DNA of 64,000 nucleotides from the IMG/VR virus record IMGVR_UViG_3300020179_001470, positions 8,947 to 72,946 of that record. One strand, given 5' to 3'. This stretch comes from a virus. Below, one piece after another: positions 4,722 to 40,583 of the stretch; within the stretch, counting starts at the first letter, position 1; each line of letters opens with the position of its first letter. Below the pieces are notes generated by a model, which saw only the letters and a program-made list of their open reading frames with translations, was not told the origin of the DNA and did no database searches. A program made the translations under genes and the position numbers.

Positions 4722-6563
4722 ATGCAACTCATCAAACAAAGGTTTTCATATTTTAGGATAGAGTTACTCAGGGACAATTGTATGGTTACCCAAGAGAAAC
4801 CTGAAATAAGTGTTGCACCTGAAAAAGAGATATTCGATGACCCGTTTATCAATAAACTGATTGAAAAAAATCAAATCTCGCCCGTGACGAGTATTCATAC
4901 TCCGTATGAAACGGTTAAGTTAGAACCTAAACCTAAAAAAGGTCCTAAGACAAAGTATTTCTACAATGATAACGAAAAAGAATATGTCTCTTTTCCAAAA
5001 TTAACTAAACAACCTTTTTATACAACAAAAGAGAGACATCTTAAAAGACATTATGGAAATCCATTTGCATCAATACATATTGTCATATATGAAAGAACAA
5101 TAGAACTTCGTGATGGTAAATTATACATAAGGTGTTATAAAAACACAAGACATCGTGATTTTAATTGGAGGTATTTTCGCAAATCTTCTAATGTGATGAC
5201 CCTTACAATCGATTTACATAAAGGTGATTTTACTATTGGGGATTTAAATTTTGGTAAAAATAAATCCAAGAGATTTAGAAAAAATTCATTTACTACTTTA
5301 GAAATTTTATTGGGTTCAAATAATCTTTTTAATTTAAAAAAAGAGTTTAATAGTAATTTAAAAATTTCAAGTGAGTTCAATGAAGCGTTCAATGAACAAA
5401 AGTTCATGCAAACTATAAAAGATTTCATTCCAAATATACCTAATTCAATTCAAGATTTATTTGATAAACACGGATTCTTAACTAGTTTTATTGAATTTTT
5501 TGTTGAAAAGAAAAAAATAAAGACCCCAAATGATTTTATTACACTGATAAAACTATATTACCCAACTGAAAAATTCCTCAAAAAAAATCAGAGAAAATTA
5601 ACACAATCCATTTTGGATAGTTACGGTATAAATTCCAAATTCACATTAAAACTTTTTCATGATAAACCTAAATTGAATTTACAGGAATTTTCATGTTTTT
5701 GTGATTTACTTGGAAAAGATTACCCAAAATACCTTGGTTCCTTAAAACCAGAATGTTTTGATTTTTTTATAAACAACGAAGGTTCATCTCAGATGGCCAC
5801 ACCTCTTGAATTAAGGGGTGCGGGAAATCACCACCGACATCTTTTTATTGATAATATTGATAGAGAAAATATTATTAAGATTCTTAACTCTTTGATTGGT
5901 TCATCATCCGAAGTTGTTTACAGACCTCCAATTAGAGGTCTGTATACACTCATAAAAGACCATTTTGATATGATTGAAAAAGTTAGGGAATTTGACCCTA
6001 ATTTAAAAATGAGGGCAACTAACTACAATGACTTTCACACAGAACATATAGAACTCAGTAAAACATGTTCCGTAATTAGAAAAGGTTGGTCGATTGAATA
6101 TCAATATGATAATCGAATGGTCAGACTTGTTGAGGAGAGTATAAATACAAATTTTGAAAACAATAATTACGAATTCAAACCGGTAATTTTAAAAAGGCAA
6201 GAGGAATATTCGGAAGAAGGTACATTTATGCACCACTGTGTTGCTAGTTACGCGAATAAAGAATCGTCAATGATAATTTCATTAAGAATTAATGGTGGGG
6301 CCGATAGAGTAACGTGTGAGTTTAATAAAAAAACAGGTGAAAGTATACAAGAAAGACATTTTTGTAATAAGTTACCACCTGAGTATTTTGGTGAGTCATT
6401 AGAAATATTGAAAAAAAGGGTTAGAAAATTTGCTAGTCAGAGACTATTGAATCATATTGACATGAAAAAAGTTAAAGTTAAAATAAATGGTAAAGAGGTT
6501 GCAGATAGAACGGAACCCGATTTATTTGAACAACTTTTAAATGGTGACAACTTGGAGTTGTAA
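4722..6563 (+). CDS. PcfJ-like domain protein
   Basis: C-terminal EEGTFMHHCVASY motif typical of the PcfJ family. Confidence 0.7.
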   Translation: MQLIKQRFSYFRIELLRDNCMVTQEKPEISVAPEKEIFDDPFINKLIEKNQISPVTSIHTPYETVKLEPKPKKGPKTKYFYNDNEKEYVSFPKLTKQPFYTTKERHLKRHYGNPFASIHIVIYERTIELRDGKLYIRCYKNTRHRDFNWRYFRKSSNVMTLTIDLHKGDFTIGDLNFGKNKSKRFRKNSFTTLEILLGSNNLFNLKKEFNSNLKISSEFNEAFNEQKFMQTIKDFIPNIPNSIQDLFDKHGFLTSFIEFFVEKKKIKTPNDFITLIKLYYPTEKFLKKNQRKLTQSILDSYGINSKFTLKLFHDKPKLNLQEFSCFCDLLGKDYPKYLGSLKPECFDFFINNEGSSQMATPLELRGAGNHHRHLFIDNIDRENIIKILNSLIGSSSEVVYRPPIRGLYTLIKDHFDMIEKVREFDPNLKMRATNYNDFHTEHIELSKTCSVIRKGWSIEYQYDNRMVRLVEESINTNFENNNYEFKPVILKRQEEYSEEGTFMHHCVASYANKESSMIISLRINGGADRVTCEFNKKTGESIQERHFCNKLPPEYFGESLEILKKRVRKFASQRLLNHIDMKKVKVKINGKEVADRTEPDLFEQLLNGDNLEL

Positions 6564-8798: not shown

Positions 8799-9266
8799 CT
8801 AAAACCAAAATGGTTGTTGTCTATTTTTCCAAGTAGTAAATCTTGACTTTGCGCCTCGGTAATAATTACGATACGATTCGATTACACAATCGGTTTTATA
8901 TTGTATTGGCATTGCCTTAGGTGGGTCAGTTAATCCTTTGTCAGGTATGTTTAATTTATTTGTGACACACCATTCAATCACATCTTGAGATTTATGTCGT
9001 TTACCATATCGGTAAGTGTATTCCTTACACAATTCCAAACCTAATTCACACAATAAAAGATAATTTGTTAACGATTCCCTAACCCAAATAGAACACGGAT
9101 GATTTTTCTGTGATAACTTATAGGGGGCCTCACTATCATTTTGATTAGTCACATGATGAGCACCACATAGTAATTGTGCGGTTTCCAATATCATTTTTAC
9201 TACGTGTTTGTCACAGTGATATTCAGCACATTTCTTGATATCTTTATCTAAAAAGAAAATATTCAC
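8799..9266 (-). CDS. Pyrimidine-dimer DNA glycosylase/DenV-like family protein
   Basis: MNIFFLD...HCDKHVVKMILETAQLL, NHPCSIW, EYTYRYGKRH motifs. Confidence 0.75.
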   Translation of the reverse strand: MNIFFLDKDIKKCAEYHCDKHVVKMILETAQLLCGAHHVTNQNDSEAPYKLSQKNHPCSIWVRESLTNYLLLCELGLELCKEYTYRYGKRHKSQDVIEWCVTNKLNIPDKGLTDPPKAMPIQYKTDCVIESYRNYYRGAKSRFTTWKNRQQPFWF

Positions 9267-34618: not shown

Positions 34619-35038
34619 ATGGGATACTCAGATTTAGTAATTGACCACTACACCAATCCCCGTAATGTAGGAACATTGGATAAATCCAAATCGAATGTTG
34701 GTACGGGATTAGTTGGAGCTCCTGAGTGTGGTGATGTAATGCGTCTACAAATTGAGGTAGACGAAGATACGGGTATTATAAAAGAAGCAAAATTTAAAAC
34801 ATTTGGATGTGGTTCTGCAATTGCTTCATCATCATTAGTAACTGAATGGTTAAAGGGTAAATCAATAGATAAAGCACTTACTATTGATAATATGGATATA
34901 GTTGAAGAACTTAATCTACCGCCAGTCAAAATACATTGTTCAGTTTTAGCTGAAGACGCTATCGTTGCGGCTATAGATGATTACAGAAAAAAACAAGGTC
35001 TCAAAGAATTGATTAATAATAAAACAATTTTATCATAA
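34619..35038 (+). CDS. iscU: Fe-S cluster scaffold IscU
   Basis: DHYTNPRNVG, GAPECGDVMRLQI, KFKTFGCGSAIASSS, LPPVKIHCSVLAEDAI. Confidence 0.97.
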   Translation: MGYSDLVIDHYTNPRNVGTLDKSKSNVGTGLVGAPECGDVMRLQIEVDEDTGIIKEAKFKTFGCGSAIASSSLVTEWLKGKSIDKALTIDNMDIVEELNLPPVKIHCSVLAEDAIVAAIDDYRKKQGLKELINNKTILS

Positions 35039-35045
35039 ATTTTAG

Positions 35046-35369
35046 ATGATTACAGTATCAGAATCTGCATCAAAGAAATTAAATTTACTAATAGAAGAAA
35101 GTGGATGTGTAACACCATTTGTGAGGGTTGCGGTAAAAGGGGGTGGATGTAGTGGTTTATCTTATGACCTATCATTTGATACAGAACAAAATATAAACGA
35201 CACATTAGCGGAAGATAAGGGAATAAAAATTTTGGTGGACAATAAATCTTTATTATACCTTTGTGGCACCGAATTAGAATTTTCTGATGGGTTAAACGGA
35301 AAAGGTTTTCAATTTATTAATCCCAACGCTAGTCGAACCTGTGGATGTGGGGAATCATTTTCAATATAA
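35046..35369 (+). CDS. iscA: Fe-S carrier IscA/HesB family
   Basis: GGGCSGLSY, NPNASRTCGCGESF. Confidence 0.93.
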   Translation: MITVSESASKKLNLLIEESGCVTPFVRVAVKGGGCSGLSYDLSFDTEQNINDTLAEDKGIKILVDNKSLLYLCGTELEFSDGLNGKGFQFINPNASRTCGCGESFSI

Positions 35370-36516: not shown

Positions 36517-36933
36517 ATGGTCACAGTTGGGGTGATAGCGGGAAATTTTGACATTATCCATCCGGGGTATATTCATATGTTCAACGAATGTAAAAAACAT
36601 TGTGACTATTTGGTTGTATGTTTACACGAGGACCCGTCTATTGAAAGACCCGAGAAACTAAAACCGGTGTTATCCTTAGATGAAAGGACCCAAATACTGG
36701 AATCATTAAGACAAGTTGATGAGGTGATTCCATATAGTTTTGAAATAAATCTATATGAGATTTTAAAGAATAGAAATTTTCATGTTAGGTTCTTGGGTGA
36801 TGATTATAAAAACAAATCGTACACTGGTGATAACCTACCAATCCCCATACATTATTTAGATAGGTCTCACGGTTGGTCAACCACAAAATACAAAACGTTA
36901 ATATCGAACACCATTAACTTAAACAAATTTTAA
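36517..36933 (+). CDS. Cytidylyltransferase (TagD-like)
   Basis: GNFDIIHPGY, DPSIERPEK, LGDDY, RSHGWSTT. Confidence 0.85.
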   Translation: MVTVGVIAGNFDIIHPGYIHMFNECKKHCDYLVVCLHEDPSIERPEKLKPVLSLDERTQILESLRQVDEVIPYSFEINLYEILKNRNFHVRFLGDDYKNKSYTGDNLPIPIHYLDRSHGWSTTKYKTLISNTINLNKF

Positions 36934-36949
36934 AAAATATAAATATTTT

Positions 36950-37001
36950 TTTGGAAATCTCAAAAAATACATTACATTTGTATTGTAATTGTTCTTTGAA
37001 A
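36950..37001 (+). promoter_or_regulatory. Bacteroidetes-type promoter plus boxA-like element upstream of tracr/CRISPR
   Basis: TTTG 36950-36953, 19-nt spacer, TACATTTG 36973-36980, TGTTCTTTGAAA 36990-37001. Confidence 0.7.
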
Positions 37002-37022
37002 TATTGGAAACTTCAATATATT

Positions 37023-37150
37023 ATTTCATCAGAGGTAAAACTTTGGTGGGGGTGGTTGTACACCCCATAGTGAATCCTGAATAAACAGGGTGGAATTTAT
37101 CTGGAGATTAACTTCTCACTCACTAAATACCTTTTATTTTTAAATAAGGG
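37023..37150 (+). ncRNA. Putative tracrRNA (Cas12f scaffold)
   Basis: Stems CAUCAGAG/CUUUGGUG and GGGGUG/CACCCC with loop GUUGUA complementary to repeat 3' end UACAAC; 3' UACCUUUU..AAAUAAG complementary to repeat; homologous to 39377-39484. Confidence 0.8.
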
Positions 37151-37194
37151 AATCATTCACAATATGTTGATTCGTAATAAGATGGGTTAACCAT

Positions 37195-37948
37195 GTTGTA
37201 AATACCTCTTATTTGAAAGGTGTATACAACTGGTTTGAACTGTTTGCACCTCCCTGAAGAGTTGTAAATACCTCTTATTTGAAAGGTGTATACAACTATG
37301 ACCAACAGAACTTGATGTTAAATCAAGTTGTAGATACCTCTTATTTGAAAGGTGTATACAACTGAAATTCCACCTAATGACTGGAATCCAGGTTGTGGAT
37401 ACCTCTTATTTGAAAGGTATATACAACGTTAATCCTCTTTGATTGTGAGGTTATGTGTTGTGGATACCTCTTATTTGAAAGGTACATACAACCGATGAAC
37501 CGGGTCCTTATCAAATTGAGAGCGTTGTAAATACCTCTTATTTGAAAGGTGTATACAACGCAATAACCCAATTCCATAATTACGGTATAGTTGTGGATAC
37601 CTCTTATTTGAAAGGTGTATACAACAGAGAATGATTCAACGGCCATTCCAATAAGTTGTAGATACCACTTATTTGAAAGGTGTATACAACGTCACTTGTG
37701 GCCACTAAATCTGTTGTAGATACCACTTATTTGAAAGGTGTATACAACATTTGTTCTTTATGTTGATGTGGAGGACGCACTGTAACGCTAAGGTTACTGG
37801 TTGTAGATACCTCTTATTTGAAAGGTATATACAACTAGTCGTATTAGTACCGATACTACAAAAACGGAAAGGTATATACAACATGTAGACTCTTGGGTGT
37901 TGTGTTAACCACGTTGTAGATACCACTTGTTTGAAAGGTATATACAAC
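37195..37948 (+). CRISPR. CRISPR array, 36-bp repeat GTTGT(A/G)(A/G)ATACC(T/A)CTTATTTGAAAGGT(G/A)TATACAAC
   Basis: 11 full repeats starting at 37195, 37261, 37327, 37392, 37457, 37524, 37590, 37655, 37713, 37800, 37913; half repeat 37867-37882; spacers mostly 29-31 bp (one 22, one 51); degenerate remnant near 37978. Confidence 0.98.
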
Positions 37949-38028
37949 TTTAGTCCAGTCATCCAAAGGAAAATTTGGTTACCACTTGAAGTTTTTAATA
38001 TGACAATGAACATAAACCCGAACATGAC

Positions 38029-39459
38029 ATGCCAATAATCACAAGAAAAATCAAATTGATTGCGGTTGGTGAAACCAGCAAGGACAAAACCGCATCGTAC
38101 AACTATGTTAAAAGGATTGCATCCGATTTAACTCAGGTGGGTAATGAAGTTATTCGTCTTCACGTTTGTAATCAATATGAATTGGATAGATTAAAATCAT
38201 CCATGAACATATCCAAGGGTGATGCAATCAAGATTTTTCAAGAACAGATTGGTACATCAGTTCAGAACAGTGGTTATCAAATGTTAACCAAGTTTCCATA
38301 TATTGCTTCAGATATTAGAACAAACTTCAATCAGAAGATATTCAAAACCATTAAGGAAAACTTTCACGACATCATGAACAGCAAGATGTCGGTACCATCA
38401 TTTAGGAAGACATCCATATCCATTCCGTTCAGTGGTGTAAAGGCGGGTGAATGTGTATTATTTGTTGATGATGATGATGAACATATGTTTAACTTTCCTT
38501 TATCATCATCGGAAAAAAGTATTCATAAGGAAATTAAATTCAGATTACATTATGGTAGGGACCCCAGTAACAATCGTGTCATTGTAAATAGGATTTTGGA
38601 TGGGACTTATAAGATGAACGGGAGTTCCATTCAGATTGACGATAACGATTTGTACTTGTTGTTGACCTGTGATATTCCTGTAAATGTATCCAATAATATG
38701 GACCCCAATAAGGTAATGGGAATTGATTTGGGTATTAACCGACCGGTATCAATTTATATTGATGGGGAGAAACGTCAACCATCACAAATTCAATTGGGTG
38801 AGAAGATTCAATCTGAAAGGATGAGGTTCTACAAACAACGTAGAGCACTTCAACAATCCATGAAGTTTGCCAAGGGTGGACACGGAAGAAAGAGAAAGAT
38901 GTTGGGGATGGAAAAACTAAGGGAAAAGGAATCCAATTGGGCTACTCTTATGAATCACAACATCAGTAGGGAGGTTATTAATATTGCGCAACAATATAAT
39001 GTGGGCATTATTAAGATGGAGGATTTAACCGGTATAACCACGAACAAGAATGATTATTTTTTAAAATCGTGGGCATACTACCAACTTCAGACCGACATTG
39101 AATATAAAGCGAAGATGGTTGGAATTCAAATTCTGTGGGTAAATCCAAAAGACACATCCATTACATGTCCAACTTGTAAGAATGTGAATAAGGAGAACAG
39201 AAATGATAAGGATAAAACCAAGTTCTCTTGTGTTAATATAGAATGTGATGATTTTGGTAAACTAAAGGATGCTGATATCACCGCAGCACACAATATTACT
39301 TATTCTGAAGGTTCTGATGTGAAAGGTAAGAGTAAGAAAGGTAGATTATTAAAAGGTATTCAAAAGAAACAAGACATTTTCATCACCACAAGTGATGGGG
39401 TTGGTTGTACAACCCATAGTGATTCCTTGTATAAACAGGAGGAGGTAATCTCGGAGTAA
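38029..39459 (+). CDS. cas12f: Cas12f/TnpB-family RNA-guided nuclease, catalytic residues intact
   Basis: RuvC-I GIDLG, GGHGR, RuvC-II MEDL, W.YYQLQ..IEYKA, Zn finger CPTC...C..EC, RuvC-III DADITAAHNI; 476 aa; adjacent to array; no cas1/cas2 in window. Confidence 0.88.
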   Translation: MPIITRKIKLIAVGETSKDKTASYNYVKRIASDLTQVGNEVIRLHVCNQYELDRLKSSMNISKGDAIKIFQEQIGTSVQNSGYQMLTKFPYIASDIRTNFNQKIFKTIKENFHDIMNSKMSVPSFRKTSISIPFSGVKAGECVLFVDDDDEHMFNFPLSSSEKSIHKEIKFRLHYGRDPSNNRVIVNRILDGTYKMNGSSIQIDDNDLYLLLTCDIPVNVSNNMDPNKVMGIDLGINRPVSIYIDGEKRQPSQIQLGEKIQSERMRFYKQRRALQQSMKFAKGGHGRKRKMLGMEKLREKESNWATLMNHNISREVINIAQQYNVGIIKMEDLTGITTNKNDYFLKSWAYYQLQTDIEYKAKMVGIQILWVNPKDTSITCPTCKNVNKENRNDKDKTKFSCVNIECDDFGKLKDADITAAHNITYSEGSDVKGKSKKGRLLKGIQKKQDIFITTSDGVGCTTHSDSLYKQEEVISE

Positions 39460-39520
39460 TGGACTCACTCACTAAGTACTTTTCAAAGGTGTATACAACT
39501 AGTAGAATGTCAAATGATGA
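39377..39520 (+). ncRNA. Putative fused omegaRNA/sgRNA-like guide overlapping the nuclease 3' end
   Basis: Second scaffold copy ending AAAGGTGTATACAAC (39485-39499, identical to last 15 nt of repeat), then unique TAGTAGAATGTCAAATGATG. Confidence 0.75.
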
Positions 39521-39564
39521 TAACGGAAGAAAATTTAATTAATTTGGGGTAACAAGTGGATAGG

Positions 39565-39636
39565 ATGAAGATTGCGGTAATTGCTCATGATGGAAAGAAG
39601 GTGGACATGGTGGCGTTTTGGATTTATTTCAAATGA
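39565..39636 (+). pseudogene. Duplicated mgsA 5' fragment
   Basis: MKIAVIAHDGKKVDMVAF vs MKIALIAHDGKKADMVAF of 21684-22058; stops after 23 aa. Confidence 0.8.
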
Positions 39637-39797
39637 AAAGTTCAATGAACTTCTTGAACAAGCCAAAGAAATGGAGAAAGAGCAGATAATTGAGTTTGCT
39701 AAACATTGTTTAGACAAGAGCATAGACTTGGACATTTTAATGGCATATAATCAAGTAGAAATTGAGTATACCAATAGAACCTTTAAATCAGAATAAG

Positions 39798-40583
39798 ATG
39801 AGCGCAAAAATAGAAATAAACAAAATTTACAACGAAGATTGTTTGATAACTATGAGTAAAATGCCAGATAATTTCTGCGATTTAATTGTAACATCTCCCC
39901 CATACGATAATATGAGAGATTACAATGGATATAAACTTGACTTGCACAAAGTAGGAGAAGAACTATATAGAATAACAAAAGATGGAGGAATGGTTTGTTT
40001 TGTGATGCAAGACCAGACAAAGAATTTTGGAAAATCATTAACCACATTCAAAACTGCTATTGACTTTTACAATATCGGGTTCAAATTGTTTGAATGTTGC
40101 ATATATCGCAAATACGGACAAGAAGGAGCTTGGTGGAATAAAAGATTTAGAATTGACCACGAATATATTTTAATGTTTCTCAAGGGAGATAAGCCAAAAT
40201 CATTTAACAAAGAGCCGTTGAAAATTCCATCAAAGCACGGTGGTAAAACAATTACAGGATGTGCTACGAGGCAAACCGATGGCACTACTCAAAAATCAAG
40301 AGCAATTAAAATTAACTTGATGAAATGTAGGGGTAGTGTTTGGGAATATCTAAATGGTGGAGATAAGAATAAAATTAAACGAAAGCATCCTGCTACATTT
40401 CCTGATTCTCTTGCAAATGATTTAATAGTTTGTTTTAGCAAAGAAAAAGATATAGTTTACGATTGTTTTGGCGGTAGTGGAACTACAAGTAAGATGTCTG
40501 CAAAAAATAATAGAAGTTGGATTATTTCAGAAATAAGTAGTGAATACTGTAAAATCATAAGTGAAAGAATGTCTGAAATATAA
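39798..40583 (+). CDS. Orphan DNA methyltransferase (N4C/N6A, beta class)
   Basis: IVTSPPY, HPATFP, YDCFGGSGTT, SEIS. Confidence 0.9.
   Translation: MSAKIEINKIYNEDCLITMSKMPDNFCDLIVTSPPYDNMRDYNGYKLDLHKVGEELYRITKDGGMVCFVMQDQTKNFGKSLTTFKTAIDFYNIGFKLFECCIYRKYGQEGAWWNKRFRIDHEYILMFLKGDKPKSFNKEPLKIPSKHGGKTITGCATRQTDGTTQKSRAIKINLMKCRGSVWEYLNGGDKNKIKRKHPATFPDSLANDLIVCFSKEKDIVYDCFGGSGTTSKMSAKNNRSWIISEISSEYCKIISERMSEI

Follow-up and report, generated by a model that had tools for sequence, protein, structure and literature searches.

A putative natural single-guide RNA embedded in a jumbo phage cas12f gene, next to a split tracrRNA and CRISPR array

Introduction

Type V-F1 Cas12f proteins, such as Al3Cas12f, CnCas12f1, OsCas12f1 and AsCas12f1 (PDB 9NZO, 8HR5, 8J12 and 7WJU), are miniature RuvC and zinc-finger effectors encoded beside a CRISPR array, with a long, structured trans-activating CRISPR RNA (tracrRNA) that carries an anti-repeat and makes a pseudoknot-type contact to the repeat end. 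Single guides for these proteins have been made artificially with a GAAA loop (PMC13186708). Here we describe a cas12f locus in a 64,000-nt stretch of viral DNA, referred to as the window (IMG/VR record IMGVR_UViG_3300020179_001470, positions 8,947 to 72,946), which shares these traits. It differs in that two scaffold genes flank the effector, one of them embedded in the open reading frame (ORF) and naturally joined to a guide, and in that the tracrRNA of this family normally continues into the first unit of the array.

TnpB nucleases process their own mRNA into omegaRNA, and the omegaRNA (reRNA) of IS200/IS605 elements overlaps the 3' end of the nuclease ORF and carries its guide at the RNA 3' end. 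The embedded scaffold of the window has the same arrangement, and its RNA is probably made from the nuclease mRNA as well; in contrast to omegaRNA, its guide resembles a spacer and has its match in a phage gene, the ORF-scaffold overlap appears to be derived within a CRISPR family, and the guides of related loci are unrelated to one another. TranC systems, whose reRNA is, according to secondary sources, functionally divided into tracrRNA and CRISPR RNA (crRNA), offer a further comparison, and a phage-borne example (CauTranC9) is presented in a preprint. As far as these sources go, TranC resembles the present system in that a small TnpB-like effector is accompanied by a CRISPR array, and in that a single scaffold matters in both its one-molecule and its split form; the difference is that here both guide forms are encoded at one locus, and that the direction of change would lead from a fused array head to both forms and then to the split form only.

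Nuclease-dead Cas12f homologues (dCas12f) use chimeric single guides, and loci with both full-length guide RNAs and arrays have been reported; in that study (Hoffmann et al., Nature 2026, PMC13472631) the guide is proposed to have split and the dual form then to have "collapsed again" to a single one. The likeness consists in a Cas12f-lineage protein with a natural scaffold-plus-guide RNA. As described there, dCas12f is nuclease-dead, sigma-E-associated, chromosomal and regulatory (PMC13472631), whereas the window encodes intact catalytic residues in a jumbo phage, with a scaffold that lies within the ORF and a guide whose match is a phage gene. A search of a limited literature collection found no ORF-embedded natural single guide for a nuclease-active Cas12f. 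What appears particular here is the combination of an intact nuclease, an in-frame scaffold with a codon-position signature, one fixed guide with an exact protospacer, and a graded series within the family. The step from a one-piece to a two-piece guide RNA has so far been inferred from distant comparisons; the closely related loci described below carry fused, split or both forms on one scaffold, each of which could be tested with the same protein.

Results and discussion

Organization of the locus and proposed function

The locus lies on a jumbo phage fragment from a freshwater lake: the record comprises 72,946 bp at an estimated completeness of 22%, and phage relatives with this Cas12f system measure 246-365 kb, in line with the jumbo phage origin supposed in a first-pass annotation made from the letters of the window. 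On the + strand, between positions 36950 and 39560, a promoter-like site is followed by a scaffold, a CRISPR array, a 476-aa ORF and a second scaffold starting inside the end of that ORF (Table 1).

Two modules are proposed. The first would consist of its own promoter-like site, a tracrRNA with a free anti-repeat, and an 11-repeat array of population-variable spacers. The second would be the remnant of an ancestral downstream array, whose scaffold lost its promoter and slid into the cas12f frame, and which is joined in cis to a single guide by way of a short hairpin between anti-repeat and repeat and of a pseudoknot between loop and repeat end. The cas12f mRNA would carry this scaffold-guide at its 3' end, processing would free it, and Cas12f would load it as a complete single-guide RNA, so that the protein would be armed with a hard-wired guide once made, with the array adding changeable guides via the trans-acting tracrRNA. 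The target of the hard-wired guide would be a gene in a related jumbo phage, with exclusion of a competitor as the most likely purpose. We give somewhat better than even chances to the central claim, namely that the embedded unit acts as a natural single-guide RNA which is produced along with the nuclease and directed against a competing phage.

Table 1. Features of the cas12f locus, in window coordinates.
Feature	Position	Strand	Evidence
Promoter-like site, presumed Bacteroidota type (TTTG, 19 nt, TACATTTG)	36950-36980	+	Pattern search
Conserved leader box GTTCTTTGAAATATTGG before the upstream scaffold; also an inverted-repeat arm paired with 37986-38012	36991-37007	+	
Upstream scaffold (predicted split tracrRNA), 3' end = anti-repeat AAAUACCUUU	37024-37137	+	Covariance model R1, 107.3 bits (E 3e-24)
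Gap from anti-repeat to repeat 1	37138-37194	+	By-eye inference
CRISPR array, 11 full 36-nt repeats (GTTGTARATACCTCTTATTTGAAAGGTRTATACAAC) and a half-repeat unit (37864-37882)	37195-37948	+	Repeat finder
cas12f, 476 aa, last ~27 residues = read-through of the scaffold	38029-39459	+	Pfam, PDB matches
Downstream scaffold copy inside the ORF end	39375-39486	+	Covariance model R1, 87.3 bits (E 4e-19)
Repeat 3' half (TTCAAAGGTGTATACAAC) in cis to the anti-repeat	39482-39499	+	Repeat hidden Markov model (HMM), E 4e-5
Fixed 23-nt guide TAGTAGAATGTCAAATGATGATA	39500-39522	+	Exact 23/23 protospacer

One scaffold in two copies

A repeat finder paired positions 37044-37134 with 39393-39483 (70% identity over 91 nt), and alignment with MAFFT widened the pair to 37023-37137 and 39376-39487. 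A covariance model of the ~113-nt scaffold (R1), built from 22 scaffolds of 15 loci, recovered both copies (Table 1), and no third copy was found in the 64 kb, the next match reaching 16.8 bits (E 0.32). The compared loci shared 36-85% protein identity and were taken, together with an additional one (L244), from viral, metagenome and genome collections. Two R1 copies were found in each of the relatives G001, G002 and L244 and one in G003, and in G001-G003 they occurred only at the CRISPR locus. A search of Rfam gave no relevant family, the sole match being a sub-threshold small nucleolar RNA on the opposite strand.

Both window copies adopted a common fold, in which two 5' hairpins lead to a multi-branch domain closed by AGUGA/UCACU and then to the anti-repeat. 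Stem 1 was CAUCAGAG/CUUUGGUG in the upstream copy and CAUCAC/GUGAUG in the downstream copy, and stem 2 was GGGGUG/CACCCC and GGGUUG/CAACCC, respectively, with the loop GUUGUA. When RNAalifold was applied to the same 22-scaffold alignment from which R1 had been built, 19 consensus pairs were obtained, with compensatory changes in 13 of them. Paired cells amounted to 95.5% in the scaffold alignment vs. 75.6% in shuffles, the covariation score was 0.575 vs. 0.191 (reached by none of 500 shuffles), and control structures slid by 1-3 columns were paired in 33-45% of cells. The upstream scaffold had a fold z-score of -3.5. As judged from this covariation, the scaffold is a real, conserved structured RNA.

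The hexaloop of stem 2 was complementary to the last six bases of the repeat of its own locus, at all six positions in 17 of the 22 scaffolds and at five in the remaining five. Three covarying states of loop and repeat end were observed: GUUGUA:UACAAC, GUUGUG:CACAAC (L004 and L088) and GUUGUU:AACAAC (L089). The covariation of the loop with the repeat end fits a pseudoknot-type contact, and in the downstream unit of the window the repeat end UACAAC pairs 6/6 with the loop GUUGUA. The anti-repeat AUACCUUU complements the repeat segment AAAGGURU.

These results bear on several claims of the first-pass annotation, which had noticed two copies of the scaffold, named the stems and their compensatory pairing, predicted the pseudoknot from loop to repeat end and suggested a covariance and folding alignment as a check. 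The two copies were recovered concordantly by repeat finder, MAFFT and R1, every named stem was present in both folds, the loop behaved as predicted, and in the alignment pairing was kept, with covariation above all shuffles. Its claim that the locus holds two guide formats, a split tracrRNA with an array and a cis-fused scaffold-guide, also stood at the sequence level, and both formats share one RNA fold.

The effector protein

The 476-aa protein matched the Pfam models OrfB_IS605 (37.9 bits) and Cas12f1-like_TNB (52.3 bits), both over the cut-off, as well as NCBIfam guided_TnpB (151.5 bits vs. a cut-off of 100), and scored 108.2 bits with the Cas12f2 model (NCBIfam NF049972), below its cut-off of 450. 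The best PDB match was Al3Cas12f (9NZO/9NZR; E 1.1e-56, 196 bits, residues 78-414), followed by CnCas12f1, OsCas12f1, AsCas12f1, RhCas12f and Un1Cas12f1. All 14 PDB matches (E ≤0.01) were Cas12f-type chains, named here after PMC13186708, and ISDra2-type TnpB structures were not among them. In a large protein collection 261 homologues were found at E ≤0.001, many of them on contigs of 100-340 kb, and no close relative was found among GenBank phages, in which the best match had 31% identity.

The RuvC and zinc-finger residues D233, E331, D414/D416, C380, C383, C401 and C406 were invariant in 35 homologues, in keeping with the earlier claim of an intact RuvC D/E/D set, and the motifs GIDLGIN and MEDLTG aligned to Al3Cas12f; the catalytic positions are assigned by analogy with the family. 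By these features the protein is a predicted nuclease-competent Cas12f1-like type V-F effector.

Transcription signals

The pattern TTTG-N17-23-TAnnTTTG, which we take to be a Bacteroidota promoter consensus, was located 37-49 nt upstream of 10 of the 22 scaffolds, including the upstream copy of the window. The full pattern had six occurrences in the 64 kb, and the site at 36950-36980 holds the only TAnnTTTG on the + strand within 36800-39600. One promoter may thus drive the tracrRNA, the array, cas12f and the embedded unit. The motif was found before none of the four ORF-embedded scaffolds, and in full before 10 of the other 18. Since the embedded copies have no promoter motif of their own, release of the embedded unit from the 3' end of the mRNA is the route we infer. 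A box-like leader sequence preceded seven of the 22 scaffolds and likewise none of the four embedded copies. A scan for sigma-70 promoters and terminators performed no better than shuffles, the lone "terminator" being stem 1 of the scaffold, and no sigma factor was found among the eight neighbouring ORFs scanned.

Conservation of the embedded unit

The downstream scaffold overlaps ~28 codons (stop included) of the cas12f ORF and continues into TTTCAAAGGTGTATACAAC, the 3' half of the repeat (39481-39499), and then into non-repeat sequence, as the first reading of the junction had it. No second repeat was found behind the guide: within 39480-39800, and with E relaxed to 100, the repeat HMM detected only the half at 39482-39499. 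By eye, the sequence behind the guide had some likeness to a decayed second repeat, an idea that was dropped, as the repeat HMM gave it no support.

The read-through tail (..IFITTSDGVGCTTHSDSL.KQEE.IS) was present only in the four ORFs of the window clade (window, L001, L082 and L083), and the other 11 ORFs ended before the scaffold. Among these four loci, pairwise identity was 74-82% in the gene body, 87-95.5% in the scaffold and 30-59% in the guide. Identity at third codon positions amounted to 96.4% in the overlap (159/165) vs. 60.1% in the gene body (1579/2628). From this contrast in substitution pattern, the embedded copy is evidently under purifying selection at the RNA level and not decaying. 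The first-pass annotation had named an unconserved, decaying downstream copy as the finding that would speak against its interpretation, and the third-codon identities show the opposite.

Several features of the unit nevertheless weigh against a working single guide. Alone, it folds weakly (z-score -1.7, with 15 of 200 shuffles equally good), and the cis anti-repeat:repeat stem is short, with ~6 pairs including wobbles. The embedded copy of L083 has one broken stem-2 pair. In one metagenome run, the sequence of an ~87%-identical relative departs from that of the window after the first 12 nt of the scaffold, and L002 and L003 have no downstream copy, so that the copy is dispensable in some relatives. 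Transcription, processing and the 3' end, as well as loading, cleavage, PAM (protospacer-adjacent motif) compatibility and the target's being a different phage, are predictions of the proposal.

Several of these features would also be expected if the downstream unit were a non-functional relic of an old array, kept only as coding sequence; in addition, the window's copy is the only one of the 22 scaffolds with a single unit, and it has no promoter motif. Protein constraint, however, cannot explain 96% identity at third codon positions, and the absence of the tail from all 11 more distant homologues indicates that it is not a conserved protein segment. Moreover, base pairing, the complement for the pseudoknot and the half repeat have all stayed intact, and there is an exact protospacer in a related phage. 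We regard a relic as unlikely.

The fixed guide and its target

The 20 nt directly behind the half repeat matched the viral contigs L181 and L182 (G004), which represent one phage, being 99.8% identical over 12.2 kb. The match was exact over 23/23 positions, counted from the first base after the repeat, and fell on the sense strand of a 570-aa ORF beside a 1577-aa ORF. Homologues of the 570-aa ORF were present in G001-G003 at 27-29% identity, and G004 had 51 of its 73 ORFs in common with G001, a relative of the phage of the window. The target thus appears to be a jumbo phage of the same broad group; a chance match would not be expected within that group, which supports reading it as a target. 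When 107 spacer-like 26-mers were compared with ~1.09 Mb of these phages, the fixed guide gave the only foreign match of at least 20 nt.

The position of the match also bears on whether the downstream copy is only a second tracrRNA gene, expressed from the 3' end of the mRNA, with the guide being incidental. Its anti-repeat (GUACUUUU) is still able to pair with the repeats of the array, and three lineages, namely the window clade, L004 and L244, have dual scaffold cassettes. Both the anti-repeat and the pseudoknot loop would, however, be occupied by the cis repeat half, and the 23-nt match to a phage gene starts exactly at the repeat junction; we hold this explanation to be very improbable.

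On the side of the target, too, not all evidence is favourable to the proposed single guide. The 5' flank of the protospacer (..TTAGATGT) is not T-rich, and the nearest characterised Cas12f relatives use T-rich PAMs (PMC13186708). No second protospacer that could define a PAM was found. A protospacer was found in the viral collection for one of the three fused guides tested, the guide of L001 finding only itself and that of L083 nothing. Moreover, G004 and the window record do not overlap on the map of G001, have nearly equal G+C (0.334 vs. 0.332) and are not separated by tetranucleotide correlations, so they might be pieces of one phage.

If G004 were the same or a nearly identical phage, the guide would be self-directed, either regulating a gene of the phage's own structural region or being tolerated because its flank is not a PAM, and fixed regulatory single guides are indeed known for dCas12f (PMC13472631). 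Against this, none of 24 spacers of G001, G002 and G003 (genomes 75-100% complete) matched its own genome elsewhere, and a perfect self-match beside a PAM would be harmful given the intact catalytic residues. G004 is also less similar to G001 than the window record is, with a median ORF identity of 44% vs. 57%, and an excess over outgroups of +13 points (n=29-30) vs. +22 points (n=4-5). These outgroup-normalised identities lean towards a different phage, with only 4-5 genes on the side of the window record. A self-directed guide is in our view unlikely.

The nucleotide overlap between G004 and the window record was limited to the guide and one 517-nt stretch of 69% identity. The latter is a non-syntenic gene that is also present once in G001; it was located at G000 40-700, G004 69950-70625 and G001 5478-6131, with ~46-54% protein identity and in a different genomic context in each of these three jumbo-phage records, and so behaves as a mobile gene.

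In a separate case, the fused first spacer of L089 (4013-4044) resembled a conserved region of TnpB-like genes in eight other viral loci over 19-22 nt. It was not used as evidence, since there are mismatches at the first two positions of the guide and since a conserved motif is encoded in this region.

If the single-guide proposal is correct, the window would carry an innate guide that is hard-wired against a rival jumbo phage and co-expressed with the nuclease. The locus suggests how a phage can reserve one privileged guide for a specific competitor by producing it along with the nuclease. In practical terms, single-guide designs evolved in nature would become available for a compact Cas12f predicted to be nuclease-active, including a short natural linker and minimal arrays of half repeats.

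Relatives and direction of change

Cis-fused scaffolds, in which the anti-repeat reaches the 3' half of a repeat and a spacer within 60 nt, with a regular array next, accounted for 15 of the 22. The seven split scaffolds were the upstream copies of the window, L001, L002 and L003, both copies of L004, and that of L163. Distant TnpB-like phage proteins served to root a protein tree, in which the clades closest to the outgroup (L009; L088/L007/L089; L085/L084/L087) had the downstream scaffold only, L004 had both scaffolds, and so did the window clade (support 100/100), while L002 and L003, adjoining the latter, had the upstream scaffold only. L244, a 248-kb contig binned with a Flavobacteriaceae genome, had two scaffolds, both fused.

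In the basal lineages the downstream scaffold lay outside the ORF, had its own promoter motif and headed a regular array. Overlap between ORF and scaffold was found in four of the 15 loci, all belonging to the window clade, and in L001, L082 and L083 the embedded scaffold was followed by the fused unit and then by one or two further repeats, which marks the unit of the window as the probable head of a shrunken CRISPR array. As reconstructed from the tree, in the ancestral layout the gene is followed by a scaffold that continues in cis into the opening unit of a downstream array, and the overlap with the coding sequence is a derived state, at the tip of the tree. The loci would thus form a graded series within one family, from downstream fused, through both forms, to upstream split only.

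This polarity is relevant to the interpretation given in the first-pass annotation, in which the downstream unit was a TnpB-style guide RNA and the locus either a TranC-like intermediate between TnpB and Cas12 or a Cas12f with a natural single guide. As an intermediate, the locus would have retained a transposon omegaRNA/reRNA and gained a split tracrRNA and an array. The layout is indeed TnpB-like, with a scaffold overlapping the ORF end and a guide at the 3' end, the guided_TnpB score exceeds its cut-off, and, according to secondary sources, published work holds that splitting of the reRNA created tracrRNA and crRNA. The overlap is nevertheless confined to the tip of the tree, the basal scaffolds being outside the ORF, with their own promoter and heading normal arrays, and the nearest characterised proteins are Cas12f1 and not ISDra2-type TnpB. 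The guide matches a phage gene instead of flanking DNA, and the units of the relatives are trailed by repeat-spacer units. No Y1 transposase (Y1_Tnp) was found in the 72.9-kb record by a search that was positive in six of 14 control genomes; regarding a transposon context, there was no TnpA and there were no extra scaffold copies, including in the genomes of the three relatives, while the left and right ends (LE/RE) were not specifically searched for. This part of the annotation was accordingly not sustained, and we attach little probability to it. Cas1 was not found in four of these phage records.

Returning to the proposed natural single guide, a wider scenario can be put forward only tentatively, at clearly less than an even chance: that single-molecule and split guides interconvert within one phage Cas12f family and both work at this locus, with the embedded guide being excised from the cas12f mRNA, as TnpB does with its omegaRNA, and directed at a rival jumbo phage, and with the upstream split tracrRNA having arisen by decay of its cis repeat half. 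If true, the family of the window would be a living, testable model of how type V CRISPR is presumed to have arisen through splitting of the RNA, and of the reverse step.

In L082 and L083 (81-85% protein identity) the upstream cassettes carried a scaffold and repeat type unlike those of the window and L001, and the downstream cassettes were nearly identical to that of the window. This pattern suggests that whole tracrRNA-array cassettes are exchanged between phages. A 179-nt direct repeat of 99% identity, with tRNA-like T-arm sequence, was present upstream of the CRISPR locus in L001 (1220-1398 and 2965-3143).

The upstream module

The anti-repeat of the upstream scaffold is free, and the first intact repeat end comes 107 nt after CACTCAC. 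The intervening gap (Table 1) possibly consists of a decayed cis repeat half (..TTCACAA) and an old first spacer.

At least half of the words of the stretch were contained in 19 lake-water runs. No RNA run was listed among those containing this DNA, and the one run presumed to be of RNA yielded contigs of a divergent relative only. In contigs of three lake runs, the array showed breaks at repeats, other spacers and a 265-nt deletion, and the embedded unit and its guide were unchanged in same-strain contigs. This fits an array content that varies in the lake population beside a fixed guide, bearing in mind that contigs cannot show absence. The deletion lies at window positions 37691-37957, in contigs of two runs, with seven other letters at the joint. 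Spacers 1 and 2 of the window array had no matches, and the comparison of the array with GenBank phages gave nothing beyond a 26-nt match (E 0.2).

The upstream tracrRNA and array are flanked by a 27-nt inverted repeat (36990-37016 and 37986-38012, 81% complementary), both arms of which were found at equivalent positions in L001. Its role could lie in processing, as a long-range RNA stem, or it could mark the ends of a movable tracrRNA-array cassette.

Units with only the 3' half of the repeat were observed in the window (37864-37882), in L002 (2329-2420) and in L244 (2380-2470 and 3940-4050), and both arrays of L244 consisted solely of half repeats of ~13-17 nt. Among 46 distinct repeats compared, the 3' half was nearly invariant and the 5' half freely variable.

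Neighbouring genes

Upstream of the locus, at 34619-35369, the window encodes a NifU/IscU-like protein (177 bits) beside an IscA-like protein (59 bits), both of iron-sulphur cluster assembly. A gene for an N6/N4 DNA methyltransferase (125 bits) is located at 39762-40583, ~260 nt 3' of the fixed guide.

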